Shown: one piece after another, positions 233 to 63,945 of the stretch
How positions within the stretch are numbered: position 1 is the first letter of the stretch
Layout: every line of letters begins with the position of its first letter
Assembly: GCA_002448475.1 (NCBI GenBank)
Contig: DJYI01000049.1
Coordinates: 5,475-69,474 of the forward strand
DNA: 64,000 nt
Direction of reading: 5' to 3'
Source: Verrucomicrobia bacterium UBA6982
Lineage (GTDB): Bacteria > Verrucomicrobiota > Kiritimatiellia > RFP12 > UBA3636
Program-made: the position numbers and the translations under genes
The notes under the pieces: model-generated
What the model was told of the DNA's origin: nothing
What the model saw: only the letters and a program-made list of their open reading frames with translations
Databases searched by the model: none

Positions 233-2659
233 ATGAACATGCCCCGTTTGCATTCCCTTTGCGCCTCTCTCTGCGTCCTTTGCGCCGGTTCCGCCGCCGG
301 CGGCATCAAATGCGTCGCGCACCGCGGCGACTATCCCGACGCGCCGGAACATTCGATGGCCGCTTACCGCAACGCGGTGGAGCGCGGCAGCGAGGTGCTG
401 AAGCTCGACGTTCATCCGTCCAGGGACGGCGTGATCGTCCTTTCCCACGACCCTACCTTCAAGCGCACGATGGGCTGGGACGTCCGGATCCGCGATGTCA
501 CATGGGACGAAATCCGGCGGCACACCTATCTCCTGGGCGGGCAACCCACGCAGGAGCGCGCCATATCGCTCCCGGAGGCGCTTGAAGTCGTGAAGTCGAT
601 CCCGGAGTTTTGGATTGACTTCAAGTCCTTTGATCCGGACTTTGCCGAACGGGTGCTCGCGACCTTCGCGCAGTTTGGAATCGGCCAGGACCGCCTCATG
701 GTGGCGACCTACAATGGCGACGCCCTGCAATACTTTCGCAAGGCACACCCATCGATCCGCCGCATCGTCCACATCGACTTTTGCGAACAGGACGGCAAAT
801 GGTCCCTTTCCTTTGAGAGGCACTTGGGAATCCTGTGCCGAAAAGCCGCCGACGGCGAGCCGTATTCGCCGGAAGTGGCCGAACACATTCTCGAATGCGC
901 CCGGACGCTCGACCTCTGGGGCGTGAATCTAGGCGCCGTGCCGCAGGTCGTCACGCCGGGACTCGTTGCGCGGCTGCACGGCGAAGGGCTGGCCGTCTCG
1001 CTCGCGCTCGTCCACGATGCCGCGACGGCGCGCGTTTTCGCCAATCACGGCGGGGACTTCGTCGTGACGCGCGACCGCCGCGTTGTAGCGCCGATCATAT
1101 GCGCTGGACAAAGAAAGGAACTTTGCTGGCAATGCGGGCCCAACGCCCGCATCGAGGGGAATCTGCTCATTGCCGAAGTTCCGCCAGGCGAGGAGAAGAC
1201 CGGCGGTCTCGCCACGGCCGAGATCGACCTTTCGGCGTGGGATGGCAAGCCCGTCGGGGCGGAGATCGTCGCGAGCGGCGAGCGCATCGCGAAGCCGCTC
1301 CACTGGTACACCGGCCTCAAGTTCCAGTTCGAATACGAGGATTCGCTCTCCGGCGAGTGGAGCTACCCGAACACGCCCGGACGCCTCGGCGACTTCCCGG
1401 AGCAGACGATTCGCGTCTCCGACCTCGCCTCCGGCGTGTCGCGCACGAAGGCGCGCATGATGATCGGCCTCCAGGAGACGAGCGGCCGCGCCGTCTTCGA
1501 CCTCTCCACCCTCCGCATAGGCGACCCCGTGCCTCTCTGGCCCATCACGAACCAGAACCACCGGTGCGCGTACACTGGAAGTCTTAACGCGGAGGCGCAG
1601 AGACGCGGAGAAACGCAGAGTGACAATCTTGCAATCCTGTCTACTCAATCTTCGGGCGAAAACGCCTCTGCGCCTCTGTGTCTCTGCGTTAAAAAATTGC
1701 GCGGCGTCATGTCCCCGTCGCGGAAGGAGCCGCCGTTCATGACGGAGGCCGACTTCGACACGCTTCAGTCGTGGGGCGTCACCCTGATCCGCTACCAGAT
1801 GTCGAGCAACGACGTGCGGCCCGACGGCGAAGACGCCGTCGCGTGGTTCGACCGCTGGCTGGCACCCAAGCTCGACCACTTCGATTCGTTCCTCCTTCCC
1901 GAAGCGGTGAAACGCGGCATGAAGGTCGTCCTCGACCTCCACGAGCCCCCTGGCAGCAGGGACGAGTCAAACGAAATGCGGATGTTCCACGACGAGCGCC
2001 TGGCCACACATTTCGTCGAAACGTGGCGCCGCATCGCCGAGCGCTTCAAGGGGCGCGAGGGAATCTACGGCTACGACCTCGTCAACGAGCCGATGCAGAT
2101 CTCGGAGGCGGCGCCGGACTGCGATTTCTGGACGGTCCAGAAACGCGCCGCCGAGGCCATCCGCGAAATTGACCCGGACATTCCGATCCTCGTGGAATGC
2201 AACTCCCAGGACGACCCGGCGGCGTTTGCGTCCTTCTCGCCGCTGGACCTGACGAACATCATTTACGAAGTCCACATGTACAAGCCGCTCGCCTACACGC
2301 ACCAGGGCGTCATGTGGAAGCAGGGCGAACTGCGCACGTATCCCGACGAATCGAAAGGCTGGAACAAGGACTACCTGCGGGCGTGCCTCAAGCCGGTGCG
2401 CGACTTCCAGCTGCGGCACGGCGCGAAGATCTACGCGGGCGAGTTCAGCGCCGTCGCATGGGCCCCGGGGGCGGACCAATACCTGCGCGACTGCATCGAC
2501 CTCTTCGAGGAATACGGCTGGGACTGGACCTACCACGCCTTCCGCGAATCCGGCGTCTGGAACGTCGAATGGGAGGGACCGGACCGCGACTCCCTCGGCC
2601 CCGCGAAAGGCGACACCCCGCGCAAGAAGGCGCTGCTCGACGGCTTGCGGCGGGAGTGA
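233..2659 (+). CDS. Secreted fusion protein: N-terminal glycerophosphodiester phosphodiesterase (GDPD) domain, a beta-sandwich (CBM-like) middle domain, and a C-terminal GH5 (cellulase-family) glycoside hydrolase.
   Basis: Signal peptide MNMPRLHSLCASLCVLCAGSAAG. GDPD motif HRGDYPD...ENS-type (VAHRGDYPDAPEHSMAAYRNAVERG). GH5 acid/base motif GYDLVNEP and nucleophile motif YAGEFSA. The C-terminal two thirds are paralogous to CDS 8058..9761. The ORF track begins at 74 (GTG), but the signal peptide starts at Met 233/239. Confidence 0.8.
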   Translation: MNMPRLHSLCASLCVLCAGSAAGGIKCVAHRGDYPDAPEHSMAAYRNAVERGSEVLKLDVHPSRDGVIVLSHDPTFKRTMGWDVRIRDVTWDEIRRHTYLLGGQPTQERAISLPEALEVVKSIPEFWIDFKSFDPDFAERVLATFAQFGIGQDRLMVATYNGDALQYFRKAHPSIRRIVHIDFCEQDGKWSLSFERHLGILCRKAADGEPYSPEVAEHILECARTLDLWGVNLGAVPQVVTPGLVARLHGEGLAVSLALVHDAATARVFANHGGDFVVTRDRRVVAPIICAGQRKELCWQCGPNARIEGNLLIAEVPPGEEKTGGLATAEIDLSAWDGKPVGAEIVASGERIAKPLHWYTGLKFQFEYEDSLSGEWSYPNTPGRLGDFPEQTIRVSDLASGVSRTKARMMIGLQETSGRAVFDLSTLRIGDPVPLWPITNQNHRCAYTGSLNAEAQRRGETQSDNLAILSTQSSGENASAPLCLCVKKLRGVMSPSRKEPPFMTEADFDTLQSWGVTLIRYQMSSNDVRPDGEDAVAWFDRWLAPKLDHFDSFLLPEAVKRGMKVVLDLHEPPGSRDESNEMRMFHDERLATHFVETWRRIAERFKGREGIYGYDLVNEPMQISEAAPDCDFWTVQKRAAEAIREIDPDIPILVECNSQDDPAAFASFSPLDLTNIIYEVHMYKPLAYTHQGVMWKQGELRTYPDESKGWNKDYLRACLKPVRDFQLRHGAKIYAGEFSAVAWAPGADQYLRDCIDLFEEYGWDWTYHAFRESGVWNVEWEGPDRDSLGPAKGDTPRKKALLDGLRRE
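1584..1696. repeat. GC-rich palindromic (hairpin) element of about 113 bp inserted in frame in the linker of the GDPD-GH5 gene.
   Basis: Inverted repeats TTAACGCGGAGGCGCAGAGACGCGGAGAAACGCAGAG ... CTCTGCGCCTCTGTGTCTCTGCGTTAAAAAA. It encodes a roughly 40-aa segment (TGSLNAEAQRRGETQSDNLAILSTQSSGENASAPLCLCVK) that is absent from the paralog. Confidence 0.7.
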
Positions 2660-2769: not shown

Positions 2770-5472
2770 ATGTCATGCATCCCCGTCGGCCTCGTCGCCG
2801 AATTCCTTGAAAATCCGATATGCCTTGAAACCCCGACGCCGCGCCTGTCGTGGCGTCTTGACGATTCGCGCACCGGCGCGAGGCAGACTGCATATCGCAT
2901 CGTCGCCGCGTCGTCCGCCGCCAGACTCGAAGCGGAGCATTGCGACATCTGGGACTCGGGCAAGGTTCGGAGCGAAAACACGCTGGACATCGTGTGGGGT
3001 GCAGGGCCGCTGCGTTCGCGCGCTTCCGTCTTCTGGCGCGTAATGGTCTGGGACAAGGACGGCAAGCCTTCGCCGTGGAGCGCCATCGCGCATTTCGAGA
3101 TCGGGCCGTTTGCGCCGGGCGACATCGCGGCATCGTGGATTGGCTCCGCGCGGCCCCGCACGAAGTCCGACATGCCCGTGCCGATGTTCCGCAAGGCGTT
3201 TTGCCTGCCCGCCGCGCCGGTCCGTGCGCGGCTCTACGCCACGGCCTTCGGAGATCTCGCAATGTCCGTCAACGGCCGCCCCTCCGGCGATGACCTCTTC
3301 GTGCCCGGATGGACCGACTACGGCAAGCGCGTCCCACTCGTCGCATGGGACGTGACGCCGCATTTGCGCGCGGGCGAAAACGTCCTTGGCGCGATGCTCG
3401 CAGACGGCTGGTTCGCCGGGACGATGGTCTGGCCGGACCACCGCAACCATTACGGGAGGCACACCGCCTTCATGGCGCAGCTGGAGGTCGAGTTCGCCGA
3501 CGGAACGCGGCAGGTCGTCGTCTCGGATGCCTCCTGGCACTGCACGGAGCGCGGCCCCATCCGCGCTTCGGACCACTACAACGGCGAAACCTACGACGCG
3601 AGGCTTGAAATGCCCGGATGGGACGCGCCTGGCTTCGCCGCGCGCGGCTGGCGTCGCGCCGCCGTCATCGAGGACCGCCCCAACGCGGCGCTCTGCGGCC
3701 GCATCGCCGGCCCGGTGCGCCGGCAGGAGGTCCTTGCGGCCCGGCGCCGCACCGAGCCGCAGCCGGGGCGCTATGTCTTTGACTTCGGACAGAATATGGT
3801 CGGCGTGCCGCGCATAGCCCTGAGCGGCAGCCCCGGAGCGAAAATCACGATCCGCTACGCCGAGATGCTCAATCCCGACGGCACGCTCTACACCGCCAAC
3901 TACCGCACGGCCAAATCGACGGACGTTTACATCTGCGGCTTGGCAGCCACAAAGAACACAAAGAGGCACAAAGGTTTTGCGGACTCCGTGTCCTCTGTGC
4001 CTGGAAATGAAACCTACGAGCCGCGCTTCACCTACCACGGCTTTCGTTATATCGAGCTTTCCGGCGATTTTTCCGCGCCGCCGGAATGCGGCGACGTCGT
4101 AGGCGTCGTTATCCATTCCGACATGGCGCAGACCGGCGCATTCGAATGTTCCGACCCTCTCGCCAACCGGCTCTTCTCCAACATCAACTGGGGGCAGCGC
4201 GGCAACTACTTCGAAGTGCCGACCGACTGCCCGCAGCGCGACGAACGTCTCGGCTGGCTCGGCGACGCGCAGGTCTTTATCCGCACCGCCGCCTACAATC
4301 GCGACATCGCGGCCTTCATGGAAAAGTGGATGCGCGACATCTCCGACGCGCAGCACGCCGACGGCGCCTTCACGGACATCGCGCCGGATGTCTTTCCCTT
4401 CGAGAACCACGGGCACTGCGGCTACGCCGACGCCGGCGTGGTCGTCCCGTGGACGATGTACCAGTTCTACGGCGATCTCGAAATCCTCCGGCGGCACTTC
4501 GACGCCATGGCGCGCTGGGTCGGCTGGTGGGAGCGCATCGCCGGGCCGGGGCTCGTCATCCCCTACAGGGGCGAAGGCAGCTGGCACTACGGCGACTGGC
4601 TCGCGGTCGATTGCCCCGTGGACGAAGACGGCCATCCGATCCGGGAAGGCGCCCCGACCCCGACCGACCTCCTCGCGACCGCGTATTTCGCGCGTTCCGC
4701 CGGCATCGTGGCCGACGCGGCGCGCGCCCTCGGGCGCAAGGCCGACGCGCGGCGGTTCGACGCGCTCCGCCGCCGCGTGGCAGCCGCCTACCGCCGGCAG
4801 TTCGTGACGCCCGGCGGACGTGTCGCGGGCGACACGCAGACCGGGTATCTCGTCACGCTCGGATTCGGGCTCGTGGACGACAGACAAACCGTGGCCCGCA
4901 TGGTGGACAGGCTTGCGTTCCTCGTCGAGTCGCGCGACTGCTCGCTCACGACGGGATTCCTCGGGACGCCGCTCGTCTGTCCCGTGCTGACGCGATTCGG
5001 CCGCGCCGATCTGGCCTACAGGATCTTCCAGCGCCGCAAGTATCCGTCATGGTATTTCCAGATACTCGACGGCGACGCCACGACGATGTGGGAGCGCTGG
5101 AACAGCTATTCCTCCAAGTCGGGCTTCGGCGACGCGAACATGAATTCCTTCAACCACTACGCCTACGGCGCGATAGGGGAATGGATGTTCGAAACGCTCG
5201 CCGGCATCTCTCCCATGGAGCCGGGCTTCCGTAAAATACGGTTCTCGCCCATCCCGGGAGGGGATGTGACCTGGGCAAGGGCATCGATCGCAACCAGACA
5301 CGGAACGGCGTCGATCCATTGGCGCAAACAGAAGGGCGGCCGCATCGCCGTCGATCTCGTCGTTCCGCCGTGCACAACCGCCGTGCTGGAACTGCCCGGC
5401 GCCGCGCCGCGCGAACTACAGGCGGGGCACCACCACATGACCGTCCAGGGCCTTCCGGGAAACTTCGCATAG
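2770..5472 (+). CDS. alpha-L-rhamnosidase, GH78, cytoplasmic (no signal peptide).
   Basis: N-terminal PRLSWRL motif and the GH78 catalytic-region signature EVPTDCPQRDERLGWLGDAQVF. Length 900 aa. Confidence 0.85.
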   Translation: MSCIPVGLVAEFLENPICLETPTPRLSWRLDDSRTGARQTAYRIVAASSAARLEAEHCDIWDSGKVRSENTLDIVWGAGPLRSRASVFWRVMVWDKDGKPSPWSAIAHFEIGPFAPGDIAASWIGSARPRTKSDMPVPMFRKAFCLPAAPVRARLYATAFGDLAMSVNGRPSGDDLFVPGWTDYGKRVPLVAWDVTPHLRAGENVLGAMLADGWFAGTMVWPDHRNHYGRHTAFMAQLEVEFADGTRQVVVSDASWHCTERGPIRASDHYNGETYDARLEMPGWDAPGFAARGWRRAAVIEDRPNAALCGRIAGPVRRQEVLAARRRTEPQPGRYVFDFGQNMVGVPRIALSGSPGAKITIRYAEMLNPDGTLYTANYRTAKSTDVYICGLAATKNTKRHKGFADSVSSVPGNETYEPRFTYHGFRYIELSGDFSAPPECGDVVGVVIHSDMAQTGAFECSDPLANRLFSNINWGQRGNYFEVPTDCPQRDERLGWLGDAQVFIRTAAYNRDIAAFMEKWMRDISDAQHADGAFTDIAPDVFPFENHGHCGYADAGVVVPWTMYQFYGDLEILRRHFDAMARWVGWWERIAGPGLVIPYRGEGSWHYGDWLAVDCPVDEDGHPIREGAPTPTDLLATAYFARSAGIVADAARALGRKADARRFDALRRRVAAAYRRQFVTPGGRVAGDTQTGYLVTLGFGLVDDRQTVARMVDRLAFLVESRDCSLTTGFLGTPLVCPVLTRFGRADLAYRIFQRRKYPSWYFQILDGDATTMWERWNSYSSKSGFGDANMNSFNHYAYGAIGEWMFETLAGISPMEPGFRKIRFSPIPGGDVTWARASIATRHGTASIHWRKQKGGRIAVDLVVPPCTTAVLELPGAAPRELQAGHHHMTVQGLPGNFA
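3946..4003. repeat. Short palindromic element of the CACAAAG-repeat family, inserted in frame in the rhamnosidase gene.
   Basis: GCCACAAAGAACACAAAGAGGCACAAAGG....CCGTGTCCTCTGTGCCTGG. Its 5' arm matches the intergenic element at 63825..63945. It encodes ...AATKNTKRHKGFADSVSSVPG.... Confidence 0.5.
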
Positions 5473-5547
5473 GCCACTTCACATTGGCCAAACAATACAG
5501 CGTGCTATTTTTTTCCAACGAATCGAGAGCAATCGGGTATTCTCCAG

Positions 5548-6606
5548 TTGAGGGCGCTGCACGCCCGTCCCCGAATGATCTCGATCGTCGAAGAACTCCG
5601 CACGAACCGCGAAAGCGGCGCAAAACGGCTTGAAGCCGAATACAAGGCCGGTCTCATGACTCTGGCCCGGCGCTTCCACGCCGACGAAGGCGACGCCGAG
5701 GAACTCGTCAACCGCACGCTGGCCGAAGTCATCGCGGGCATCGACGCCTATCTGGAGCAATCCGCCTTTTTCGGCTGGATGTGCAAGATCCTCGAAAACC
5801 AATACTCCAAGGACGTGCGTCGCAAGTCGAACAGGACAATTGTCGAGGCACCCGAAGCATTGGACGCGGCGGACGACGCGGATGCGGCCAACCGGATTTT
5901 CCGCGAAGTCGATGCGGCGATTCTCCGCGACGCCATCGCCACGCTTCCCGACGACATGAAGGACGCGCTCATGCTCCGCTATTTCATGGACATGCCCGTC
6001 GGGCGCGTGGCGAAAATCCTGTCGGTCCCGGAGGGCACCGTGAAGTGGCGCCTGCATTGCGCCCGGCTCACGCTCTCCGCCAAGCTCGGCGCCGCCGCGA
6101 AGAAGCCGGGCGGCAGGTCCGTCCTCCTCGCGCTGGCGCTCTGCGGCTTCGCGGCACTTGGCGCGGCGGTGTGGAACCTCGGGTGGGGCGAGCCGTCCCG
6201 GCGAGCCGACGCCCCCGCCTGGGCCTACGGCGAGGGGACGGGCGGGACCGGCGGGACGGGCGGGACCGGCGGGACGGGCGGGACCGGCCTTCAACCTTTC
6301 AACTTTTCATCCGAACAATCAACTGAACAACCCCAACAGGAAACCTCCTCTATGACCATACGCACACGTTCCGCGGCGCTGGGCGCCGCCTCCGCGCTGG
6401 CGCTTGCCAGTGCGCCTTCCGCCGCCTCCGGCGACGAATACCAGTTCATCGTCTCCGGCGATCCGGCCGCCGCCGCGACGGCGGGCGTCGTCGAGGCGGA
6501 ATCGACGGCCGGCCCGCTGGACGTCCGCCACCATGCCGTCGCCGAATCGCGCGCGATGGCCCTTTCGTCGATCAAAAACGGCAGTTTCGTCATTGTCGTC
6601 AGGTAG
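5548..6606 (+). CDS. ECF-type sigma-70 factor (regions 2 and 4) whose ORF continues, with no stop codon, through a TM segment, a GTGG tandem repeat and an intergenic-type octamer array into a small secreted-protein coding segment.
   Basis: Sigma region 4 helix-turn-helix LMLRYFMDMPVGRVAKILSVPEGTVKWRLHCAR. It is followed by the TM-like segment SVLLALALCGFAALGAAVW, then EGTGGTGGTGGTGGTGGTG, then LQPFNF (from the CTTTCAAC array), then MTIRTRS.... Confidence 0.6.
   Translation: MRALHARPRMISIVEELRTNRESGAKRLEAEYKAGLMTLARRFHADEGDAEELVNRTLAEVIAGIDAYLEQSAFFGWMCKILENQYSKDVRRKSNRTIVEAPEALDAADDADAANRIFREVDAAILRDAIATLPDDMKDALMLRYFMDMPVGRVAKILSVPEGTVKWRLHCARLTLSAKLGAAAKKPGGRSVLLALALCGFAALGAAVWNLGWGEPSRRADAPAWAYGEGTGGTGGTGGTGGTGGTGLQPFNFSSEQSTEQPQQETSSMTIRTRSAALGAASALALASAPSAASGDEYQFIVSGDPAAAATAGVVEAESTAGPLDVRHHAVAESRAMALSSIKNGSFVIVVR
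6232..6290. repeat. Tandem repeat of an 18-bp unit (GGGACGGGCGGGACCGGC), about 3 copies, encoding (GTGG)n.
   Basis: Direct reading of the sequence 6232-6290. Confidence 0.8.
6291..6320. repeat. CTTTCAAC octamer array (CCTTCAACCTTTCAACTTTTCA).
   Basis: The same motif array is found at 9781-9803, 9893-9920 and, reverse-complemented, at 63740-63773. Confidence 0.7.
6352..6606 (+). CDS. Possible separate small secreted protein (85 aa) with a signal peptide and a C-terminal ...NGSFVIVVR.
   Basis: ATG at 6352 is followed by the signal-peptide-like MTIRTRSAALGAASALALASAPSAASG. It is in the same frame as the sigma ORF with no intervening stop. The C-terminal motif is shared with four other secreted proteins. 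Confidence 0.4.
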   Translation: MTIRTRSAALGAASALALASAPSAASGDEYQFIVSGDPAAAATAGVVEAESTAGPLDVRHHAVAESRAMALSSIKNGSFVIVVR

Positions 6607-8057: not shown

Positions 8058-9761
8058 ATGAAAACAATATTCCTTCTCGCCGCCGGCTTCTCCCTGGCGG
8101 CGGGCGCCCCGGCGTGCGCCGCCGGGCAGGATACCCGCCTCGCCGAACACGGCGGCCGCGTCTGGCGGCTCTCGCCGGGCTGCCGCATCGACGGCGACCA
8201 GCTCACGGTCTCGATCCCGGAGGGCCTTTACCCGCAGACCCAGTGGGCGCGGACGGACATCGACCTCTCGCCGTGGGAGGGGCGCGGCTTCGAGGCGCAC
8301 GTCCGGGTCCGCGGCGAGGACATCGCCACGCCGACGCAGCCGTGGCTCGGCTTCAAGTTCATGCTCAGCTGGCGCGACCGGTTCACGGGCGCCATGCGCT
8401 ATCCCGGCGCCGGCGCGCCGCTCGGCGCGTTTCCGTGGCAGGACGTCTCGTTTCGCCAAATGGGCTGGTTCCGCGGTGCGGATGGCCCCGGCACACTCCA
8501 TCTCGGGCTTCAGGGAACATCCGGCACCGTCGTCTTCGACCTCTCGTCGCTCCGCATCGGCGATCTCGCGCCGATCTGGCCCGTCACGAACCAGAACCAC
8601 CGGTGCGAGTATTTCGCACCGAAGGGAATGTTCACAAATCTCAAGTGTTCACAAATCGACAATGCCACAAATAACAATTGCGGCGCGCCCGGCGGTCGCG
8701 CCCTACCGGTAGGGGCCGACCGCCGGGCGGCCCGCAATTTTGATTCGCCATTTATGAACAATGATGAACAATTGTCATTTGTGAACAATGCCGCCAAGCG
8801 GCTCGCTCCCCTAAGGGGCGTGATGTCGCCAAGCGGCCGCGACATGAACGAGGACGACTTCGCGACGCTCGCCTCGTGGGGCGCGACGCTTCTGCGCTAC
8901 CAGATGGTGCGCGACTGGCACGGCGTGGGAACCAACGCCGACCTCGAAGACTACGACCGCTGGCTGGACGGCAAGCTCGACCATGTCGAGGGCGTCGTGC
9001 TGCCGCTCGCCCGGAAATACGGGCTGAAGGTCGCCATCGACCTGCACGTCACGCCCGGGGGACGCGACGCCTCGCACGAAATGAACATGTTCCACGACGC
9101 GACATTCGCCGGCCATTTCGTCGAATGCTGGCGACGCATCGCGCGGCGCTTCAAGGGCAACGGCGACGCGATCTACGGCTACGACCTCTGCAACGAGCCG
9201 CAGCAGCAGCGCGCGGCGCCGCCGGGAATGGACGGCTGGAACCTCCAGCGCCGCGCCGCCGAGGCGATCCGGGAAATCGACCCGGAAACGCCGATCATCG
9301 TGGAATGCAACGCCAACGACGCGCCGGACGGCTACCGCAACCTCTCGCCGCTCACCCTGACGAACGTCATCTACGAAGTCCACATGTATGGGCCCGGCGA
9401 CTTCACGCACCAGGGGATCCAGGGGATGTCGATGGCGCGCTGCCGCTGGCCGGACGCGTCGCGCGGATGGGATGCTGGCTTCCTGCGCTCCGCGCTCGCG
9501 CCAGTGCGCCAGTTCCAGCTGCGCCACGGCGCGAAAATCTACGTTGGCGAGTTCAGCGCCGTCGCGTGGGCGGAGGGCGCGGACATCTGGCTCCGCGACA
9601 TCATTTCCGTTTTCGGGGAATACGGCTGGGACTGGACCTACCACGCCTTTCGCGAATGGCGCGGATGGAGCGTCGAGCACGAAGGCCCGGACATCGACCA
9701 CATGGCGCCGTCCGCCGACAACCCGCGCAAGCGCGCCCTTCTGGAGGGCCTGCGGCGCTGA
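8058..9761 (+). CDS. Secreted CBM-like plus GH5 glycoside hydrolase, paralog of the C-terminal part of 233..2659.
   Basis: Signal peptide MKTIFLLAAGFSLAAGAPA. GH5 motifs GYDLCNEP and VGEFSAV. Alignable to ORF1 across the beta-sandwich and the TIM barrel. Confidence 0.8.
   Translation: MKTIFLLAAGFSLAAGAPACAAGQDTRLAEHGGRVWRLSPGCRIDGDQLTVSIPEGLYPQTQWARTDIDLSPWEGRGFEAHVRVRGEDIATPTQPWLGFKFMLSWRDRFTGAMRYPGAGAPLGAFPWQDVSFRQMGWFRGADGPGTLHLGLQGTSGTVVFDLSSLRIGDLAPIWPVTNQNHRCEYFAPKGMFTNLKCSQIDNATNNNCGAPGGRALPVGADRRAARNFDSPFMNNDEQLSFVNNAAKRLAPLRGVMSPSGRDMNEDDFATLASWGATLLRYQMVRDWHGVGTNADLEDYDRWLDGKLDHVEGVVLPLARKYGLKVAIDLHVTPGGRDASHEMNMFHDATFAGHFVECWRRIARRFKGNGDAIYGYDLCNEPQQQRAAPPGMDGWNLQRRAAEAIREIDPETPIIVECNANDAPDGYRNLSPLTLTNVIYEVHMYGPGDFTHQGIQGMSMARCRWPDASRGWDAGFLRSALAPVRQFQLRHGAKIYVGEFSAVAWAEGADIWLRDIISVFGEYGWDWTYHAFREWRGWSVEHEGPDIDHMAPSADNPRKRALLEGLRR
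8626..8790. mobile_element. MITE-like element (TGTTCACAAAT-TIR family, about 165 bp) inserted in frame in the GH5 paralog linker.
   Basis: 5' end ATGTTCACAAATCTCAAGTGTTCACAAATCGACAATG. 3' end ATGAACAATGATGAACAATTGTCATTTGTGAACAAT (inverted). GC-rich palindromic core GCGCGCCCGGCGGTCGCGCCCTACCGGTAGGGGCCGACCGCCGGGCGGCCCGC. The ends are similar to the TIRs of the composite element at 10876..11380. It encodes 61 extra aa at the same linker position where ORF1 carries a different element. Confidence 0.7.
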
Positions 9762-9923: not shown

Positions 9924-10733
9924 ATGTTTTCCATCGACCACGACCTGCATTGCCACACGCACCTCTCCGGTTGCTCCAACGACCCGGAGCAGACGCCGGA
10001 AAATCTCCTCGCGTTCGCCACGGCGCATGGCTACGCCGCGATGGCCTTCACCGACCACTTCTGGGACGCGCCGGCCGTTCCGGGGTCGGAAGGCACCTAC
10101 CTCGACGGCTGCGGTCTGGAACACGTGTCGGCCGATCTGCCCCTGCCCGACGGCGGTCCGGTGCGTCTTGTCTTCGGCTGCGAGACGGAACTTTCGTCTG
10201 CGAGGGTTCTCGGCCTTGCTCCGGAACATTGCGACCGCTTCGGATTCATCGTCATTCCCCCCAACCATTTCCACATGACGGGATTCGTCCGCCCGGCGGA
10301 GTGCGCGACGGCGGAACGGCGCGCCGAACTTCTGGTCTCTCGCCTGGAAACCGTGCTTGGCATGTCTCTGCCCTGGGAGAAAGTCGGGATCGCGCACCTC
10401 AACTGCGGACTCATGTTCGCCGACGGCGACCTCGGGGCGGTGCTTCGCGCCGTTCCGGAGGACCGCTTCCGCGACGCCATGCGCGGCTTTGCCGAACGTG
10501 GCGCCGGGATCGAACTCAACATGGCGAGCTTTGACGCGAACCGCCGGCGCGGCGTCTCGCCGGAAGACGCCCTGCGCCTCTTCCGCTTCGCCCGGGACGA
10601 AGGCTGCCGCTTCTATCTGGCAAGCGACGCCCACCACCCGGCCGGACTCGAACTCGTCCCCGGCATCGCGTCAGAGATCGTGGACGCGCTTGATCTTGAC
10701 GCCCGCCACGTTTACAGGCTGCCCGAGCCCTGA
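9924..10733 (+). CDS. PHP-domain (polymerase/histidinol-phosphatase family) metal-dependent phosphoesterase.
   Basis: N-terminal MFSIDHDLHCHTHLSGCS...AFTDHF is the PHP-domain His motif. The ORF track starts at 9870 within the repeat; the Met at 9924 is the likely start. Confidence 0.7.
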   Translation: MFSIDHDLHCHTHLSGCSNDPEQTPENLLAFATAHGYAAMAFTDHFWDAPAVPGSEGTYLDGCGLEHVSADLPLPDGGPVRLVFGCETELSSARVLGLAPEHCDRFGFIVIPPNHFHMTGFVRPAECATAERRAELLVSRLETVLGMSLPWEKVGIAHLNCGLMFADGDLGAVLRAVPEDRFRDAMRGFAERGAGIELNMASFDANRRRGVSPEDALRLFRFARDEGCRFYLASDAHHPAGLELVPGIASEIVDALDLDARHVYRLPEP

Positions 10734-10768
10734 TATCCGATTGTGTCGCGCGCTTCCGCTCGTCGTCG

Positions 10769-10875
10769 CTACAGCCCGACGACGTGAATCGTCTTGCCGC
10801 CAAAAGCCACGTCGCGGGTGAAAAGCCGCTCGTCCCAGGACTTGCCGGAGTCGTCGTCGAAGACCGGCATCCAGC
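10769..10875 (-). pseudogene. 3' fragment (last ~35 codons) of a second copy of the AAA-ATPase/PD-(D/E)XK gene (paralog of 18658..20232).
   Basis: About 105 bp are roughly 90% identical to 18658-18765, including the stop codon. Homology ends abruptly at the left TIR of the inserted element. Confidence 0.7.
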
Positions 10876-11380
10876 TCGAAGAATTGTTCACAATTGACAA
10901 TTGAGACAAATGTTCACAAATGGGAAATGACAAATTCATCTTCTGTCCTGTTCGTTAAGATTTCGCCGGGCCGTTGTCACGCTTGCGTAGAAAATCTTTA
11001 TCAATTCTTCGGTTTCCTGCAATACGTGCGACACGAGATTTTGATCGGCATAATTCCTCATCGCGATGATACGAAGCCACATTCTGGTTTCAATGAGTTC
11101 CTTGAGCGCGATATTTGTCTTGTGGGCGAAATCTTTGCGCGATTCCGGAACGCACGCCTCGGCATAATTGGCTGCAACCGACGTGGCTGCTCGAAACAAT
11201 TGGTCCTGGAGGTGCGCTTTCCCGATTTTGGAAACCATGGATTCGCAAACATCGATGGCCGCTGCTGCAAAAGCCGCTACCCGGAATTCAATTTCGGAAG
11301 ACGTTAGCATGGCAAATTGCGTTTTGTTATTTGTGAACAATTGTTTCAATTGAAAATTGTGAACACTCTAGCAGAGCGCG
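10876..11380. mobile_element. AT-rich (about 45-48% GC) ~0.5-kb element with ~50-bp imperfect terminal inverted repeats of the TGTTCACAA family. It carries a four-helix-bundle gene and replaces the middle of an AAA-ATPase gene copy.
   Basis: Left TIR ATTGTTCACAATTGACAATTGAGACAAATGTTCACAAAT. Reverse complement of the right TIR AGTGTTCACAATTTTCAATTGAAACAATTGTTCACAAAT. Low GC compared with the flanks. Flanked by the N- and C-terminal fragments of the ATPase paralog. Confidence 0.7.
10936..11310 (-). CDS. Four-helix-bundle protein of the 23S rRNA intervening-sequence / DGR Avd-like family (PF05635/TIGR02436-like).
   Basis: Motifs LQDQLFRAATSVAANYAEACVPESRKDFAHKTNIALKELIETRMWL match the family consensus (L..Q..RAA.S...NIAEG ... 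S.K.F..........E....L). Length about 124 aa from ATG 11310; the ORF track's TTG at 11349 lies inside the TIR. Confidence 0.75.
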   Translation of the reverse strand: MLTSSEIEFRVAAFAAAAIDVCESMVSKIGKAHLQDQLFRAATSVAANYAEACVPESRKDFAHKTNIALKELIETRMWLRIIAMRNYADQNLVSHVLQETEELIKIFYASVTTARRNLNEQDRR

Positions 11381-11577
11381 ACTGCGTCGCCCTTGGCGTT
11401 GATTTCGCGGACGAGCGCCTTGACGGTTGTCGTCTTGCCCGTCTGTCGCGGCGCGTGGATGACGAAATACGTCTCCTGCTCGACAAGGCGCCGAATTTCC
11501 GGCATCCGGTCGAGAGCGGGCAGCATGTAATGCTTGGCGGGAAAGCAGGGGCCCGCGACGTTGAAGAACTTTTCCAT
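11378..11577 (-). pseudogene. 5' fragment (first ~66 codons) of the second AAA-ATPase/PD-(D/E)XK gene copy, ending at the element junction.
   Basis: Encodes MEKFFNVAGPCFPAKHYMLPALDRMPEIRRLVEQETYFVIHAPRQTGKTTTVKALVREINAKGDAVALC*, near-identical to the N-terminus of 18658..20232. The upstream region also shares the TGGTAGCAT -10 element. Confidence 0.7.
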
Positions 11578-11743
11578 TTGAACATCCGTGTCGCCGACAC
11601 GGAGAATGCTACCATAATGCCACCCCCGGGACAACAGGCCGCACGCGGGCGCGCTGTTGGCGAAGGCCGCAGCGGTTGGCGGCGGCCGTCGAAGTCGTTG
11701 CCGGAGGCGTTGCGGACGCGGGCGCCGAGGTCGCTGAAGGGTG

Positions 11744-11932
11744 TCAGAGGCATCCGAGAAGGATGCCGGAAATGCCGAGGACGAAACCCGCCGCCTGCCT
11801 CGCATCAAGGCGCTCCCGAAGAACGAGCGCACCGTAGGGGAAGTATCCGGCGATGCAGGCGGCGACGAAGACGCGCCCGTCAAGCCAGCATGTGAGCGTT
11901 CCGTGCAAATCCTCGGCGTCGAGTTCTTTCAT
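11744..11932 (-). CDS. Small (62 aa) membrane protein with two hydrophobic segments, translationally coupled (ATGA overlap) to the upstream GH gene.
   Basis: Strong GC3 bias. The start ATG overlaps the stop of 11929..13710 by 2 nt. No recognisable family. Confidence 0.4.
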   Translation of the reverse strand: MKELDAEDLHGTLTCWLDGRVFVAACIAGYFPYGALVLRERLDARQAAGFVLGISGILLGCL

Positions 11933-13710: not shown

Positions 13711-13721
13711 CAGGCTTTATT

Positions 13722-15071
13722 CTATTGTCCCTGCGCGACGTCATCAAGTTCCAGTAGCGTCGCTGCGGAGGAACCCATGCAGTTGAGCCAGTCGTAAAGC
13801 GGCGAACTGAGCGCCTCGTGTGTCCAGAATGTCGGGATGCGCCCTTCCGGCGTCTGGACGCGGGTGATGGTGTCGCCGAGCGCCCGCGCCTTGGCCAGCA
13901 GCTCCGGCTCGCCGGTTGCCCGCCAAAGCGCCAGGTAGGCGCGGATCATCTTCGCCGCCGATGCGTCGATCGGCACGAAGCAACTGTATTGCTCAAGCAC
14001 CGACGGGGTATCCCACAGCGGGTGGTTGGCCGGCGTCTCCCAGCAGACGAAGCGCTTTTCACAGAAACGCAGGATGCGGCGGCACTGCTCAAGGCGAGCG
14101 GAATCGCCTGGGAAACGACGCAGAATCTCAAACATCACCTCGACGGCGTTGTGCTTTGTCGGGTTGGCGTAGGGCGGGCGCGGCTGGATGTCCTCAAACT
14201 GCCCATCCCAGTTCCAGTCGGTGAGCGGATGCGCCTCCAGCCACGCGAAGCAGCCGTCGGCCGCCTCGGCCCAGCGCTTTTCCCCGGTCGCGTCGGCGAG
14301 GGCGTTGAAGAGGGCGAGCGGGCGCGTCGGGACAAGCGTGTTCTCGCCGATGGGCTCGCCGGTTGCGAGCCGCATCTTGAGTGACCAGCTGCCGTCTGGG
14401 CGGCGGGTTTTGAGGTAGGTCTCGCCGATGCCGCGCGCGGCGTCGAGGAAGCGGCGGTCGCCTGTCTCGCGGAAGAATGCGACGAACGCCGTGCCCACGT
14501 CGGCCGGGTAGAGGAGCATGACCTCGCCCCGGTACTTGACGGCGCCCTCCGGCTCGTTGCCGATCATCGACGGACGGTTTTCGCCGCCATCGTTCGGGTC
14601 GCGACGCAGCGGCGTCCGGCCGTAGGTCGGCGGCCACCACGCGAGCGGGGCGTCCTTCGGCTCCAGCTGCGTGAGGAGGTATTCGGCGGACGCCGCGGCG
14701 AAGCGCATCGCCTCGTCGCGCCGGGCCGGCTCGCGCCGCGCCCATTCCAGCATCCAATTGATGTGCGCCGCGTGGGTTTTGGAGACGTAGGCGTTGTGCT
14801 GGTAGGTCTGCTCCGGTTCGCCCTTTTCGACAAGCGTCCGCATGGCGGGGAGCGAGACCATGTAGGCGAACGCCTTCAGTGCGGCCTCGCGGTAAGGGCG
14901 CGCCGCCGGGGGATAGGCACCCGCCTTGAATGCCGCCGCCGTCTCCGGGCGCGGCGGGCAGAGCCTGTCCACGTCCGCCTCGGAGAGTTCAGCCGCCACG
15001 CAGGGACGCGGCAAGGACATTGAGGCTGCGGCCAGCGCCGCGCCCACGAGAAGGTTGCATCCGGGATTCAT
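13722..15071 (-). CDS. Secreted hypothetical protein, possibly an alpha/alpha-toroid glycoside hydrolase/lyase-like protein.
   Basis: Signal peptide MNPGCNLLVGAALAAASMS (the start was trimmed from the ORF-track 15227 to Met 15071). 450 aa, no confident family motif. Confidence 0.45.
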   Translation of the reverse strand: MNPGCNLLVGAALAAASMSLPRPCVAAELSEADVDRLCPPRPETAAAFKAGAYPPAARPYREAALKAFAYMVSLPAMRTLVEKGEPEQTYQHNAYVSKTHAAHINWMLEWARREPARRDEAMRFAAASAEYLLTQLEPKDAPLAWWPPTYGRTPLRRDPNDGGENRPSMIGNEPEGAVKYRGEVMLLYPADVGTAFVAFFRETGDRRFLDAARGIGETYLKTRRPDGSWSLKMRLATGEPIGENTLVPTRPLALFNALADATGEKRWAEAADGCFAWLEAHPLTDWNWDGQFEDIQPRPPYANPTKHNAVEVMFEILRRFPGDSARLEQCRRILRFCEKRFVCWETPANHPLWDTPSVLEQYSCFVPIDASAAKMIRAYLALWRATGEPELLAKARALGDTITRVQTPEGRIPTFWTHEALSSPLYDWLNCMGSSAATLLELDDVAQGQ

Positions 15072-15085
15072 GTCCGTAGATCCGA

Positions 15086-17371: not shown

Positions 17372-18577
17372 CTATGTGTGAGAATTCTCCTTCCTCCACT
17401 CCCGCAGGGACTTTCCCATGCGAGCGCGGAAGACGCGCCGGAGTTCCACGCCGGAGCCGAAGCCGCAGAAGTCGGCGATGGCCCCGATGGCCGTGTCGGT
17501 GCCGGAGAGAAGCGCGAAGACCTTCTCCAGGCGGACGTACTGGATTTCGTCGAGGACGGAATGCCCCGTCGCCTCGCGGAAGCGCAGGTTGAAGAGTCGG
17601 CGCGAGCAGCGGAAGCGCCTGGCAAGCGTCATGGCCGTGAGGCCGTCGCACGCCTCGCGCCGGATCATCTCGACCGCCTCCAGGACGAACTTCTCGCGCC
17701 GCCCCGCGCCGCCGGTGGAGCGTCGACGCACGGCGAGGAGCGGGGCGATGAAAAAGGTTTTTGGATCACACGGAGCCACAGAGACACGGAGATTTGCATT
17801 TCGGCTCCGTGTCTCCGTGTCTCTGTGTGAGGTCTTGTTCCCGATCATCCTCGCCGCGACATATCCGGCGCGCTCATGGTCGAGCTGGATGCTTGAAATG
17901 GCCGGTTCGGACGTCTCGCAGACCGTGAGGTCGTTGTCGACACCAAGCAGCGTCAGTTCACGCGGGATGTCGCGCCGGGAAGCCTTCGCGGCGGCCACGA
18001 CTTCGGTGGCAATGCGGTCGTTGACGGCGAAGATGGCGGTCTTTTGCGGCAGTTCCTCCACGAATCGGGCAAGACGTTCCATCCTCTTGATCTCCGGCTC
18101 TTCGCGGAACGGGAACGTGTGGCACGACATTCCGGCTTCCCCGCAAAGTGCGGAGAAGGCGTCGATCCGCTTTCCAGCCCATTCGACATCCCAGCAAGCG
18201 CCGACCACCGCATACGCGGCGGGGCGCCCGGCGGAGAGTTCTTGGAAGGCAGCGCGCGCGACGGCCTCGTTGTCGGCCGAGACGCGGACGATCCGGCCTC
18301 CGTAGAGCGACGGTGCGGCGTGGAGATAGACGACCGGAACGCGCCCGAACAGGCGCGGCGGGAGATGCGAGTTGCCGTCCGAGCACTCGACCACGCAGCC
18401 CGCGACGGGGCGGTGCGCCCCGAGCAGCGGGGCGATGTCCTCCGGGCGCGATTCCTGCCACGGCACGGATCGAACCTCCCATCCCAGCGCTCCGGCGTAG
18501 CGCCGGATGCCGGCGAGCGTTATCGCCTGGATGCGGTCGCCTTTGGCGGTGTTGAGGTATAGGATGGTCGAAGGCAT
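17372..18577 (-). CDS. XylR-like transcriptional regulator: periplasmic-binding-protein-fold sugar-sensing N-domain plus C-terminal AraC-family helix-turn-helix.
   Basis: C-terminal AraC signature ...LTAMTLARRFRCSRRLFNLRFREATGHSVLDEIQYVRLEKV...FCGFGS..LRRVFRARMGKS. Paralog of 27021..28220. The start was trimmed to MPSTILYLN (18577). Confidence 0.75.
   Translation of the reverse strand: MPSTILYLNTAKGDRIQAITLAGIRRYAGALGWEVRSVPWQESRPEDIAPLLGAHRPVAGCVVECSDGNSHLPPRLFGRVPVVYLHAAPSLYGGRIVRVSADNEAVARAAFQELSAGRPAAYAVVGACWDVEWAGKRIDAFSALCGEAGMSCHTFPFREEPEIKRMERLARFVEELPQKTAIFAVNDRIATEVVAAAKASRRDIPRELTLLGVDNDLTVCETSEPAISSIQLDHERAGYVAARMIGNKTSHRDTETRSRNANLRVSVAPCDPKTFFIAPLLAVRRRSTGGAGRREKFVLEAVEMIRREACDGLTAMTLARRFRCSRRLFNLRFREATGHSVLDEIQYVRLEKVFALLSGTDTAIGAIADFCGFGSGVELRRVFRARMGKSLREWRKENSHT
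17766..17830. repeat. 65-bp perfect-stem palindromic element inserted in frame in the XylR-like gene (interdomain region).
   Basis: CACACGGAGCCACAGAGACACGGAG atttgcattt CGGCTCCGTGTCTCCGTGTCTCTGTGTG. It shares the CAGAGAC(G/A)CGGAG motif with the element at 1584..1696. It encodes ...SHRDTETRSRNANLRVSVAP.... Confidence 0.7.
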
Positions 18578-18657: not shown

Positions 18658-20232
18658 CTACAGCCCGACGACGTGGATGGTCTTGCCGCCGAACGCCACG
18701 TCGCGGTTGAAGAGCTTTTCGTCCCAGGACTTGCCGGAGTCGTCGTCGAAGACCGGCATCCAGCCTTCGGCGAGACCGAGGGAACCGAGGTAGTCGGCGA
18801 GCTGCGCGTAGGACTTCTCCCCGGCGAAGTTCTTCGAGGTCTTGACCTCGATCGCGTAGCGCTTGCCCCGATACTCCACGCAGAGGTCGAGGCGGCGGGA
18901 CCCCAGCGCCATTTCGCGCAGGATGTGCCCGTCGCCGTTCGTGACGCGCTGCAGGAACGCCATGAGGACGAGGTGCGGCAGCGCCTCCTGGTAGTCGTGA
19001 GGGTTGCGGAGGACGCCGCTGTTTTCGCGCCAGAACGCCTGGAACGCCGCCATGAGTCCGGGCATGTCGAGACCGTCGGGCAACGCCCAAGGCGTCTGCG
19101 GAACGGACTTCACCATGTCGTCCTGCGTATCGCGGGTGAGATAGCGCCCGATGATTTCCGCATACATCCGGTTGGACGGGACGAGTTCGCGCAAGTCGTT
19201 TTCCCGCATGAGGCCAAGGTCGATGACGAACCGGTAGTCCTCGCTGTCACGGGATACCGGGCTGGCGCCGCCGAAGATGACGGGTTCGACCACACGCCGG
19301 ACGCGCGGCTCGCGGAGGCGCTCCATGAGGCTGTCCACGTGCGTGTCGCGGCGTCGAATGATCGTCTCCTTGGCCGTTTCCACGTCGGCCGCGGTAATCG
19401 GGGCCGCGTAGTCGAAGGAGTGGATTTCCTCGACGCACTCGCGGGCGATGGCATTGACGAGCCAAGGTTGGCCGCGCGTGAACTCCCAGACCCGATCGAG
19501 CGCTTCCTTTTCGAAGACCTGCCCCGTCGCCACGGTGTGCTGCGCGTAGAGGGCGGCGATCTCAGCCTCCGTGAAGTTGCGAAGCATCAGGTCCTTGGTG
19601 ATGATGTTGAAGGGGCTGATCTGGCCGCGCGACTCCCCGTCGGGGCGAATCTGGGCCTTGTAGTCGCGCACGTCCAGCATCCCGATCAGGGCGATGGAGG
19701 CTGGGAACGGAACAGAATCGCGGTTTACGTATCCGTCGCGAAGCTGGCGCAGGAAGGAGATCAGCACATTTCCCGCGAGGCAGTCCGCCTCGTCAAAGAA
19801 CACCACGAGCGGCTTCCTTACGCGGCGGCAAAGCGAGGTCAAAACCTCCCTGACGGCGAGGGACTCGGCGGCATACGTCGGGCCGGATTCCTCGACGCGC
19901 GGCAGTTCGCCGGATTCGGGAAAGTATTCCGGGAGCGTGTTCCGGGCCGCGAAAAGGAGCAGCCCGCGGATGGCGTCGGCGGAGCGGGCCGAATCCGTGG
20001 CGTTCTGGAGCGTTTCCAGCGTGCAGTAGAGCGCAACCCTTTCCCCCTTGGCGTTGATTTCGCGGACGAGCGCCTTGACGGTTGTCGTCTTGCCCGTCTG
20101 CCGCGGTGCGTGGATGACGAAATACGTCTCCTGCTCGACAAGGCGCCGAATTTCCGGCATCCGGTCGAGAGCGGGCAGCATGTAATGCTTGGCGGGGAAG
20201 CAGGGGCCCGCAACGTTGAAGTATTTTTCCAT
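18658..20232 (-). CDS. AAA-ATPase (PF09820-like) with a C-terminal PD-(D/E)XK nuclease-like domain (PDDEXK_9-like).
   Basis: Walker A HAPRQTGKTTTV. C-terminal RLDLCVEYRGKRYAIEVKTS (D...E.K). 524 aa. Confidence 0.8.
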   Translation of the reverse strand: MEKYFNVAGPCFPAKHYMLPALDRMPEIRRLVEQETYFVIHAPRQTGKTTTVKALVREINAKGERVALYCTLETLQNATDSARSADAIRGLLLFAARNTLPEYFPESGELPRVEESGPTYAAESLAVREVLTSLCRRVRKPLVVFFDEADCLAGNVLISFLRQLRDGYVNRDSVPFPASIALIGMLDVRDYKAQIRPDGESRGQISPFNIITKDLMLRNFTEAEIAALYAQHTVATGQVFEKEALDRVWEFTRGQPWLVNAIARECVEEIHSFDYAAPITAADVETAKETIIRRRDTHVDSLMERLREPRVRRVVEPVIFGGASPVSRDSEDYRFVIDLGLMRENDLRELVPSNRMYAEIIGRYLTRDTQDDMVKSVPQTPWALPDGLDMPGLMAAFQAFWRENSGVLRNPHDYQEALPHLVLMAFLQRVTNGDGHILREMALGSRRLDLCVEYRGKRYAIEVKTSKNFAGEKSYAQLADYLGSLGLAEGWMPVFDDDSGKSWDEKLFNRDVAFGGKTIHVVGL

Positions 20233-63824: not shown

Positions 63825-63945
63825 AGCCACAAAGAACGCAAAGAACACAAAGTTTCTGGAAAATGGCGGCTTGTGGCATAGCCGCCACGGCGGCGTCCGA
63901 TGCCACGGCCACCATTTTCCTAGCGCTCTTTGCGTTCCGCTGCAT
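63825..63945. repeat. Intergenic nested-palindrome element of the CACAAAG-repeat family.
   Basis: GCCACAAAGAACGCAAAGAACACAAAG ... GGAAAATGG[CGGC..GTGGCAT..ATGCCAC..]CCATTTTCC ... CTCTTTGCGTTCCGC. The 5' arm matches the rhamnosidase insert at 3946. Confidence 0.6.

Follow-up and report, generated by a model that had tools for sequence, protein, structure and literature searches.

We found that short hairpin-forming DNA repeats lie in frame inside genes of a Kiritimatiellae bacterium, where they are inferred to be read through as extra flexible protein loops. Within the 64-kb stretch of DNA that was analyzed (hereafter the window), four hairpin repeats, E1 (1584-1692), E2 (17766-17830), E3 (3946-4003) and E4 (63825-63945), were built from arms of about three tandem 8-nt units (heptamer CRCRRAG plus one spacer base). 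E1, E2 and E3 lie inside continuous ORFs, and orthologs carry no insert, or a different hairpin element, at exactly the same sites. Together with an element of a second repeat family in a paralogous GH5 linker, this places in-frame elements in four genes within 18 kb. These data support the proposal of the first-pass annotation that palindromic repeats resembling Rickettsia palindromic elements (RPE) have colonized coding sequence in this genome. The element class appears to be undescribed, and how it moves is inferred.

To determine whether the repeats were real and non-random, we compared motif counts with those in shuffled sequence. CRCRRAGNCRCRRAG matched 9 times in the window against 0.14 expected from shuffles, and the 2-nt-spacer version matched 5 times against 0.25. 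The domains flanking all three genic elements were recognized by Pfam: GDPD and Cellulase in the E1 host (236..2659, plus strand), a secreted GDPD, beta-sandwich and GH5 protein; Peripla_BP_3 and the AraC-type HTH_18 in the E2 host (17372..18577, minus strand), a regulator; and alpha-L-rhamnosidase (GH78) in the E3 host (2770..5472, plus strand). Predicted RNA folds were far more stable than shuffles for E1 (−53.9 kcal/mol, z −5.4), E2 on the mRNA strand (−39.9, z −7.4) and E4 (−68.5, z −7.1). E3 folded well only on the antisense strand (−31.8, z −4.5), and its hairpin was weak on its mRNA strand (−19.1, z −1.0).

We next delimited each element. E1 is a TTAA-ended hairpin with a left arm of TTAA followed by CGCGGAG/CGCAGAG/CGCGGAG/CGCAGAG (1584-1620), a loop (1621-1665) and a right arm of CTCTGCG/CTCTGTG/CTCTGCG followed by TTAA (1666-1692). 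Its arms are 27 nt, not 35 nt as first annotated, and pair at 22 of 27 positions by Watson-Crick pairing; all 5 mismatches are transitions, 4 of them G.U on the mRNA strand. The conceptual translation is ..LNAEAQRRGETQS..SAPLCLCVK.. in the linker before the GH5 domain, with peptides such as AQRRGETQSDNLAILSTQSSGENASAPLCLCVK. E2 is a canonical TCAC-ended hairpin with arms at 17766-17791 and 17805-17830 and a 13-nt loop. It had been described as a perfect stem, but 23 of 26 arm positions are complementary. It is translated on the minus strand as SHRDTETRSRNANLRVSVAPCD in the hinge of the regulator, with peptides such as DTETRSRNANLR. E3 has three CACAAAG heptamers in its left arm and two heptamers (CTCCGTG/CTCTGTG) in its right arm, and lies in frame in a beta-turn of the concanavalin-like domain of the rhamnosidase (..LAATKNTKRHKGFADSVSSVP..). 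E4 is a CACAAAG/CGCAAAG hairpin with a 70-nt structured loop and a right arm decayed to about 1.5 heptamers. It lies outside the long ORFs and is apparently intergenic, at the window edge.

As first delimited, the E1 and E2 segments (113 and 65 nt) are not multiples of 3. The reading frame is preserved because the true inserted lengths are. The GH5 linker is 126 nt in the window compared to 24 nt in the shortest ortholog, an insertion of 102 nt or 34 aa rather than the 40 residues first proposed. The regulator hinge is 40 aa compared to 18-21 aa in homologs without an insert. In the AlphaFold model of the regulator (mean pLDDT 85.4), residues 251-271, corresponding to the E2 peptide, were the only stretch of 3 or more residues with pLDDT below 50, and are presumably disordered.

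To assess whether the segments were conserved, we compared orthologs (loci retrieved in this study are designated L followed by a number). The GH5 linker was 24, 27, 72, 102, 111 or 126 nt long, with four different contents. It was 24-27 nt in L249 and L122, held E1 in the window and L243, a shorter E1-like copy in L247, a canonical TCAC-type copy in L248, and a different repeat family in L121 and L246. E3 was a 19-20 aa insertion relative to three solved rhamnosidases (3w5m, 6i60 and 6gsz). The regulator hinge ranged from 16 to 107 aa across 99 homologs, with at least six recognizable palindromic-element translations, and colonization of this hinge appears to recur in about two thirds of this large regulator family. 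We sought a clean pair of filled and empty sites at high identity, but L122 and L247, and likewise the window and L121, differed by replacement rather than by simple insertion. E1 and E3 were stable across relatives at 88-94% identity, and no movement event was observed.

The repeats were not unique to these loci. The same 23-nt arm pattern occurred in more than 360 unrelated loci across phyla, and the hairpin family is present in most bacterial phyla and in viral contigs. The CAGAGAC/CGGAG and CACAAAG repeats, annotated at first as two families, are variants of one heptamer superfamily, and E3 mixes both kinds in its two arms. The superfamily consensus is TTCAC or TTAA, then (CRCRGAG-N)x3, a loop, and the inverse arm. 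The commonest arrangement was 3+3 heptamers (83 of 145), the period was 8 nt in 185 of 222 steps, and terminal pairing extended only 5 nt beyond the heptamers. The left arm contains no T and the right arm almost no A, and 99 of 106 elements had arms free of stop triplets. Element lengths were not biased to multiples of 3 in the family at large (30/41/35 for the three residue classes).

Elsewhere, copies were mostly intergenic (tandem 26, convergent 9, divergent 3) and lay a median of 18.5 nt from a stop codon, just 3′ of genes. Family-wide, the left flank was A-rich and the right flank T-rich. Genic calls outside the window relied on an ORF plus GC3 heuristic that gave mostly spurious Arg-rich ORFs, and only L351 and L361 looked real. 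We found no target-site duplication at any offset: across 107 elements, direct repeats of 3-8 nt were no more frequent than in shuffled flank pairs, although TTAA ends cannot be told apart from the inverted repeat itself. Some elements were nested at hairpin tips (L048, L118, L127, L194 and L123), and the E2 ortholog in L376 had the same arms with exactly 42 additional nt in the loop. Searches against Rfam, at gathering score on the window and by E-value on three loci, gave only sub-threshold matches to miRNA hairpins. Full-text literature searches with 13-15-mers of the arms retrieved only primers, and we found no description of bracketing repeats in literature on GxxExxY, PDDEXK_3 or STRR.

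These data suggest that E1-E4 are cargo-less (“solo”) copies of a very widespread hairpin element, an explanation we consider likely. In most genomes these elements lie just downstream of genes, whereas in this Kiritimatiellae lineage several have landed, or been kept, at the few places that tolerate 19-40 extra residues: an inter-domain linker, a regulator hinge and a surface beta-turn. Genes would tolerate them because the arms offer almost no stop codons in any frame, and because the 8-nt period means that every reading frame gives the same kind of peptide, a polar HR/TE/QR-type stretch followed by an LC/SV/LR-type stretch. Selection would then keep only copies whose total length is a multiple of 3. 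Occupation of the same sites by different elements in different lineages is attributed to the rarity of permissive sites and, we infer, to a preference of new elements for the tips of existing hairpins. Translation through the hairpins is inferred from frame and stop-codon preservation only.

Unexpectedly, the same arms bracket GxxExxY genes (PF13366/TIGR04256), a very large family of unknown function with a predicted PDDEXK_3 nuclease fold. GxxExxY was an infrequent neighbor in the first 243 loci (2 hits), and a search for related GxxExxY loci in viral contigs gave a single locus. The association became clear when we asked whether GxxExxY genes are bracketed by the arms. In addition to 7 loci found through their arms, 6 of 6 genes sampled without reference to the arms were bracketed: 5 of 5 plasmid genes from 4 phyla, and a gene of Sorangium So ce726 with TTAA-(CGCAAAG-G)x4 arms (77 nt, 95% complementary). 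The GxxExxY model has a PD-(D/E)XK, Cas4/lambda-exonuclease-like fold. We infer that movement occurs by a cut-and-copy process that leaves no target duplication, driven in trans by the GxxExxY nuclease that full-length copies carry between the same arms. However, no GxxExxY gene is present in the 64-kb window, and GxxExxY could simply be cargo, because other small genes are also bracketed (a membrane protein in L015) and 23S_rRNA_IVP genes are bracketed by other tandem-repeat arms. A tentative extension, which we regard as possible but less likely than not, is that the hairpins are the non-autonomous form of a previously unrecognized, pan-bacterial mobile element whose autonomous form is TTCAC/TTAA-(CRCRRAG-N)x3-4, a GxxExxY gene and the inverse arm. 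In this scenario, the ~125-aa nuclease would recognize the tandem heptamers and drive copying into hairpin tips and 3′ gene ends without a target-site duplication. The stop-free, frame-independent arms would let the element colonize coding sequence, and possibly structured RNA genes in the manner of rRNA intervening sequences. If the link is causal, it would give a testable function to GxxExxY in culturable hosts such as Bacteroides finegoldii, Sorangium, Sphingomonas and Gemmatirosa.

We considered whether the hairpins are instead selected host features that pause ribosomes at domain boundaries to help co-translational folding or secretion, or serve as RNase III sites that tune expression, making the family a reusable regulatory module. 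The very stable mRNA-strand hairpins of E1 and E2, the position of all genic copies at domain boundaries or loops, and the occupation of the site by one hairpin or another in many lineages are consistent with this view. Even the minimal 27-nt linker of L122 can form a 12-bp hairpin, by our reading of the sequence. We nevertheless consider it unlikely. Orthologs and about a third of regulator homologs do well with no hairpin (L249, L377 and the homologs P0089 and P0098), E3 is weak on its own mRNA strand, the same elements are mostly intergenic in other phyla, and their contents are swapped between close relatives with no conservation of sequence.

It is also doubtful that these are ordinary MITE or REP-type elements moved by a DDE transposase, a RAYT or an IS200/IS605 Y1 transposase encoded elsewhere, with GxxExxY and the other small genes as passengers or as preferential insertions into hairpin loops. 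Terminal inverted repeats, high copy number and the location 3′ of genes fit this view, the lack of target-site duplication fits HUH enzymes, and non-nuclease genes are bracketed in the same style. However, there is no GTAG or CGTC tag, the arms are tandem repeats rather than palindromes, and no transposase-carrying full-length copy was seen among the paired arms examined. In those more than 300 nt apart, the ORFs found were GxxExxY, a small membrane protein and ordinary genes. The CRCRRA(G/T) arms go specifically with GxxExxY (13 of 13 genes) and not with 23S_rRNA_IVP genes (0 of 5), even in low-GC hosts such as Bacteroides finegoldii. Native linker sequence that evolved in place, with a coincidental or locally duplicated palindrome, would fit the stable inheritance of E1 and E3 within the clade, but is contradicted by the recurrence of the arm pattern, by absence from orthologs and solved homologs, and by the excess of matches over shuffles. 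An assembly or sequencing artifact is similarly contradicted. Although many related contigs are short and repeats break assemblies, E1 and E3 recur with point differences in independent assemblies from different samples (L243, L244, L245, L121 and L246), and the family is present in finished genomes of isolates (Sorangium, Gemmatirosa and Bacteroides finegoldii).

In-frame insertion of short palindromic repeats is best known from Rickettsia and a few other host-associated bacteria, where RPEs (Ogata et al. 2000) likewise add tens of residues at surface or linker positions without destroying the protein, with several families per genome. RPEs appear to be AT-rich and confined to Rickettsia and relatives, and we know of no sequence relationship to them. 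The elements described here are GC-rich, occur in most bacterial phyla, are mostly intergenic outside this lineage, have full-length relatives carrying a GxxExxY gene, and colonize genes in a free-living or gut-associated polysaccharide degrader of the phylum Kiritimatiellota. REP/REPIN elements (PMC3733652; Bertels & Rainey 2011) are also high-copy hairpins just 3′ of genes, without target-site duplications, and thought to be moved in trans by a single-copy enzyme. They are 20-40-nt imperfect palindromes tagged by GTAG or CGTC, whereas here each arm is a non-palindromic tandem repeat capped by TTCAC or TTAA and the associated gene encodes a predicted PD-(D/E)XK protein, not an HUH Y1 transposase. 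Bacterial MITEs found inside genes (Correia/NEMIS, ERIC/IRU and Coxiella QMITE; PMC2229807, PMC5896051, PMC10969869) are non-autonomous elements with inverted ends, some copies of which are read through in frame. They derive from DDE insertion sequences and make target-site duplications, which were not found here. Heptamer tandem repeats of cyanobacteria and others (STRR, apparently including copies inside the RNase P RNA P12 helix; TAACTGA repeats, PMC4679880) share 7-nt units, a horizontally scattered and mostly intergenic distribution, and occasional extension of structured RNA helices. Those are described as direct arrays; here the unit is 7+1 nt, almost always three per arm, and always paired with an inverted array.

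A separate family, TGTTCACAAAT, also colonizes coding sequence in the window. Its element E5 (8615..8800) has arms of TGTTCACAAAT repeats and a GC-rich palindrome nested at 8670-8745, and lies in frame in the equivalent linker of the paralogous GH5 gene 8058..9761. A cassette of the same family (10885..11365) has 52-nt inverted arms (79%) that bracket a four-helix-bundle/23S_rRNA_IVP gene (PF05635; 10936..11349, minus strand). This resembles 23S rRNA intervening sequences (Ralph & McClelland 1993), in which long inverted repeats appear to bracket either nothing or one small ORF and to be inserted at the tips of existing helices. Such sequences are defined by their location in rRNA and removal by RNase III. 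The elements here sit in mRNAs and intergenic DNA, and the heptamer family pairs with GxxExxY (PF13366), not with S23p. Finally, we observed an orphan right-arm-like run (CTTTGCG..CTCTGCG..CTTTGCG) at 257..284 (plus strand) that encodes the hydrophobic core (SLCASLCVLC) of the signal peptide of the GDPD-GH5 protein. In-frame colonization of genes in this lineage is a natural experiment on how selfish DNA supplies new linkers and perhaps signal peptides.

The window is about 64% GC, and its closest protein relatives come from Kiritimatiellae MAGs, largely in assemblies from samples that we take to be gut or rumen. We observed four hairpin elements (E1 to E4) whose arms are tandem runs of the heptamer C-R-C-R-R-A-G. 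E1 (1584-1692) reads TTAA-CGCGGAG-G-CGCAGAG-A-CGCGGAG-AAA-CGCAGAG, followed by a 45-nt loop and then CTCTGCG-C-CTCTGTG-T-CTCTGCG-TTAA. E2 (17766-17830) reads TCA-CACGGAG-C-CACAGAG-A-CACGGAG, followed by a 13-nt loop, the inverse arm and TGA. E3 (3946-4003) has CACAAAG x3 on the left and CTCCGTG/CTCTGTG on the right, and E4 (63825-63945) has CACAAAG/CGCAAAG x3, a long structured loop and a decayed right arm. The double-heptamer pattern occurred 9 times in the window compared to 0.14 expected, and 5 times compared to 0.25 when a 2-nt spacer was used. The folds were 4-7 standard deviations more stable than shuffles, with the exception of E3 on its own mRNA strand. The first-pass annotation had assigned 35-bp inverted repeats to E1 and a perfect stem to E2. 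We found that the arms of E1 are 27 nt and 22/27 complementary, with every mismatch a transition, and that E2 is 23/26.

To determine whether the elements are insertions that preserve the reading frame, we compared their host genes with orthologues and homologues. All three genic elements (E1, E2 and E3) lie in uninterrupted ORFs with recognizable domains on both sides. In the GDPD-GH5 protein that carries E1, the stretch between NQxHRCAY and RGVMSPS varies among orthologues while the flanks stay conserved. This linker is 126 nt and contains E1 in the window and in the orthologous locus L243. It is 102 nt in L247, with an E1-like copy that has a shorter loop, and 111 nt in L248, with a canonical TCACACAGAG... 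copy. In L121 and L246 it is 72 nt and contains an unrelated TGTTCACAAAT-type repeat, whereas in L122 (27 nt) and L249 (24 nt) it contains no element. One homologous protein (P0009) has the backbone of the window's clade (84-85% identity) but carries the linker element and the flanking TLKCAY motif of the more distant P0022 (alignment columns 440-520), which suggests exchange of the linker region between lineages, or a chimeric assembly. At the start of the same GDPD-GH5 gene, three right-arm-type heptamers (257-284; CTTTGCG/CTCTGCG/CTTTGCG) encode the hydrophobic core SLCASLCVLC of the signal peptide. Because other GDPD proteins have unrelated signal peptides, this may be an element remnant recruited as a signal peptide.

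E3 is a 19-20-residue insertion in a beta-turn relative to three solved rhamnosidases, and it is absent from L247. In the regulator that carries E2, the segment between the sugar-binding domain and PLLAVRRRSTGG ranged from 16 to 107 residues in 99 homologues, and about two thirds of these exceeded the 16-24-residue baseline. The translations revealed at least six kinds of palindromic element, including SHRGTETR..LCGSVALCD, ATKNTKGQKD..SVPF, IVHK..NC..IVNN and KGRAMRGMKG... An AlphaFold model of the window's regulator was confident overall (mean pLDDT 85.4). Its only stretch of 3 or more residues below pLDDT 50 was residues 251-271, which is exactly the E2 peptide.

We next assessed how widely the elements are distributed. 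They belong to one superfamily that is found almost everywhere. In one-genome-per-species bacterial contigs it appears in Acidobacteriota, Planctomycetota, Pseudomonadota, Cyanobacteriota, Chloroflexota, Bacteroidota, Gemmatimonadota, Actinomycetota, Nitrospirota, Kiritimatiellota, one Methanotrichaceae archaeon, and isolates such as Lewinella cohaerens and Magnetospirillum sulfuroxidans. The TTAA-ended form of E1 was likewise recovered from metagenome contigs. Across 145 paired elements, the commonest anatomy was three heptamers per arm (83 cases), and the period was 8 nt in 185 of 222 steps. The ends read TTYAC...GTRAA, complementarity stops 5 nt outside the heptamers, and loops run from 6 to about 280 nt. 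The CGGAG/CAGAG and CACAAAG elements, which the first-pass annotation had treated as separate families, are variants of this one design, and E3 mixes them.

Outside this lineage the copies are overwhelmingly intergenic, as judged from heuristic gene calls. Where the neighbors could be called, the copies lie between tandem (26) or convergent (9) genes and rarely between divergent ones (3), and the median distance from a stop codon is 18.5 nt. An exception may be the metagenome contig L351, where a membrane protein that by eye looks like a glycosyltransferase carries a TTAA-type hairpin in frame (2715-2785; SLTQRRRDAEV..LRVSALK), and where a second heptamer-like stretch (LETQRRKGREEE..) lies further upstream in the same ORF. 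We did not observe target-site duplications or a length bias to multiples of 3. The elements matched no Rfam family, and we found no paper containing the arm sequences.

The sequence of the arms suggests why genes tolerate these elements. The left arm has no T and the right arm almost no A. As a result, 99 of 106 elements have arms with no stop triplet in any frame and, because the element is palindromic, the same holds on the other strand. Because 8 is not divisible by 3, successive heptamers are read in all three frames, and any insertion phase therefore gives the same kind of peptide, which is polar and charged and then Leu/Cys/Ser/Val-rich. Only the loop, the TGA or TAA in the caps, and the total length remain to be filtered by selection. 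This is an inference from the sequence. It accounts for the in-frame survivors without any need for targeting.

Different elements occupy the same codon-level site in different lineages. In the window itself, the paralogous GH5 gene 8058..9761 (plus strand) carries E5, an element of a second palindromic family made of TGTTCACAAAT repeats, in the linker position equivalent to that of E1. E5 (8615-8800) is in frame and adds about 66 residues. A GC-rich palindrome is nested at its center (8670-8745), the middle of which reads CCCTACC/GGTAGGG and so contains the GTAG/CTAC tetranucleotide typical of REPs. The E2 orthologue in locus L376 has the same arms as E2 but exactly 42 extra nucleotides, a small palindrome, in the apical loop. 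“Russian-doll” copies also occur in five of the collected loci (L048, L118, L123, L127 and L194). Rare permissive sites explain part of this pattern, and the nesting suggests that hairpin tips are also preferred targets.

Some paired arms lie 400-500 nt apart and enclose one small gene. In locus L196 that gene encodes a GxxExxY protein (TIGR04256 / PF13366 PDDEXK_3). Six more GxxExxY ORFs in the collected loci have heptamer arms close by, on both sides of the gene in L276 and L302 and on at least one side in the rest. Because those loci had been chosen through their arms, we then sampled GxxExxY genes independently of the arms. On a Bacteroides finegoldii plasmid, the gene is bracketed by TTCAC-CACAGAG-GA-CGCAGAG-GA-CACGGAG and its inverse (30 nt, 90%, 412 nt apart). 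The genes on plasmids of Sphingomonas, Bernardetia and Treponema are bracketed by CRCRRA(G/T)-type inverted arms, and the gene on a Gemmatirosa plasmid has complete solo hairpins on both sides. On the Sorangium sp. So ce726 chromosome, the arms are TTAA-(CGCAAAG-G)x4 (77-nt arms, 95%), with the same ends as E1. Overall, 6 of 6 genes sampled in this way were bracketed. In L374 (the Sphingomonas parapaucimobilis plasmid), the GxxExxY cassette with its heptamer arms is inserted in the short spacer between fabD and fabG, inside a core fatty-acid synthesis operon, and the L217 cassette lies between what appear to be the same two genes.

GxxExxY is a very large and unusually conserved family. Of 8000 candidates, 7995 scored E<1e-10, and the 120 best hits were 71-100% identical, among them proteins named from Sorangium and a Wallbacteria MAG. 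Its structural model (pLDDT 91.5) has a predicted Cas4 / lambda-exonuclease-type PD-(D/E)XK fold, although the Foldseek scores were weak (best E 5.7e-3, TM 0.58). Its function is listed as unknown (PMC3424549), and it matched no defence or phage family. These data show an association between GxxExxY genes and the heptamer arms. That GxxExxY moves the hairpins is an inference. It might equally be cargo, and no transposition event was observed.

By contrast, five 23S_rRNA_IVP (four-helix-bundle) genes are bracketed by inverted arms made of other tandem 7-nt units, never CRCRRAG. One of these is in the window (10936..11349, minus strand), where it is bracketed by TGTTCACAAAT inverted arms (10885-10936 and 11314-11365). 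This cassette sits between the N-terminal (11368..11883) and C-terminal (10769..10939) remnants of a paralogue of the 524-aa protein encoded at 18658..20232, whose middle part is missing. In Nostoc punctiforme pNPUN01 (L378), a four-helix-bundle gene is bracketed by 44-nt inverted arms made of GTCGGAG/GTCGGAA heptamers and lies next to an XisH-family excision-factor gene.

Functionally, the elements work like Rickettsia palindromic elements, in that they are palindromic repeats read through in frame at permissive protein sites, although no transcript or peptide was observed here. They are not REPs, because there is no GTAG or CGTC tag and the arms are not themselves palindromic. They are not DDE-type MITEs, because we found no target-site duplication and no transposase-bearing parent among the paired arms examined. 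They share their architecture with rRNA intervening sequences, which have inverted arms with or without one small ORF and are inserted at helix tips. Their unit size matches heptamer tandem repeats such as STRR or TAACTGA (PMC4679880).

Within the window, E1, E2, E3 and E5 lie inside genes, whereas E4 and the 23S_rRNA_IVP cassette lie outside them. This ratio is striking, but it is a small sample drawn from only 64 kb of this genome. We also observed an imperfect inverted repeat at 6094-6163 (23-nt arms, 78%) that contains heptamer-like CTCTGCG-G-CTTCGCG-G-CACTTGGCG. It is conserved in the relative L246 (15825-15849) and may be a decayed element inside or next to ORF 5479..6294. A single isolated TGTTCACAAAT motif lies at 35713-35723, far from the other copies of that family. 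In the close relative L121, the region downstream of the rhamnosidase (9974-16212) holds phage genes (Portal_Mu and neighbors) instead of the genes seen in L243 and in another related locus, L244, and is a prophage or strain-specific island at the synteny break.
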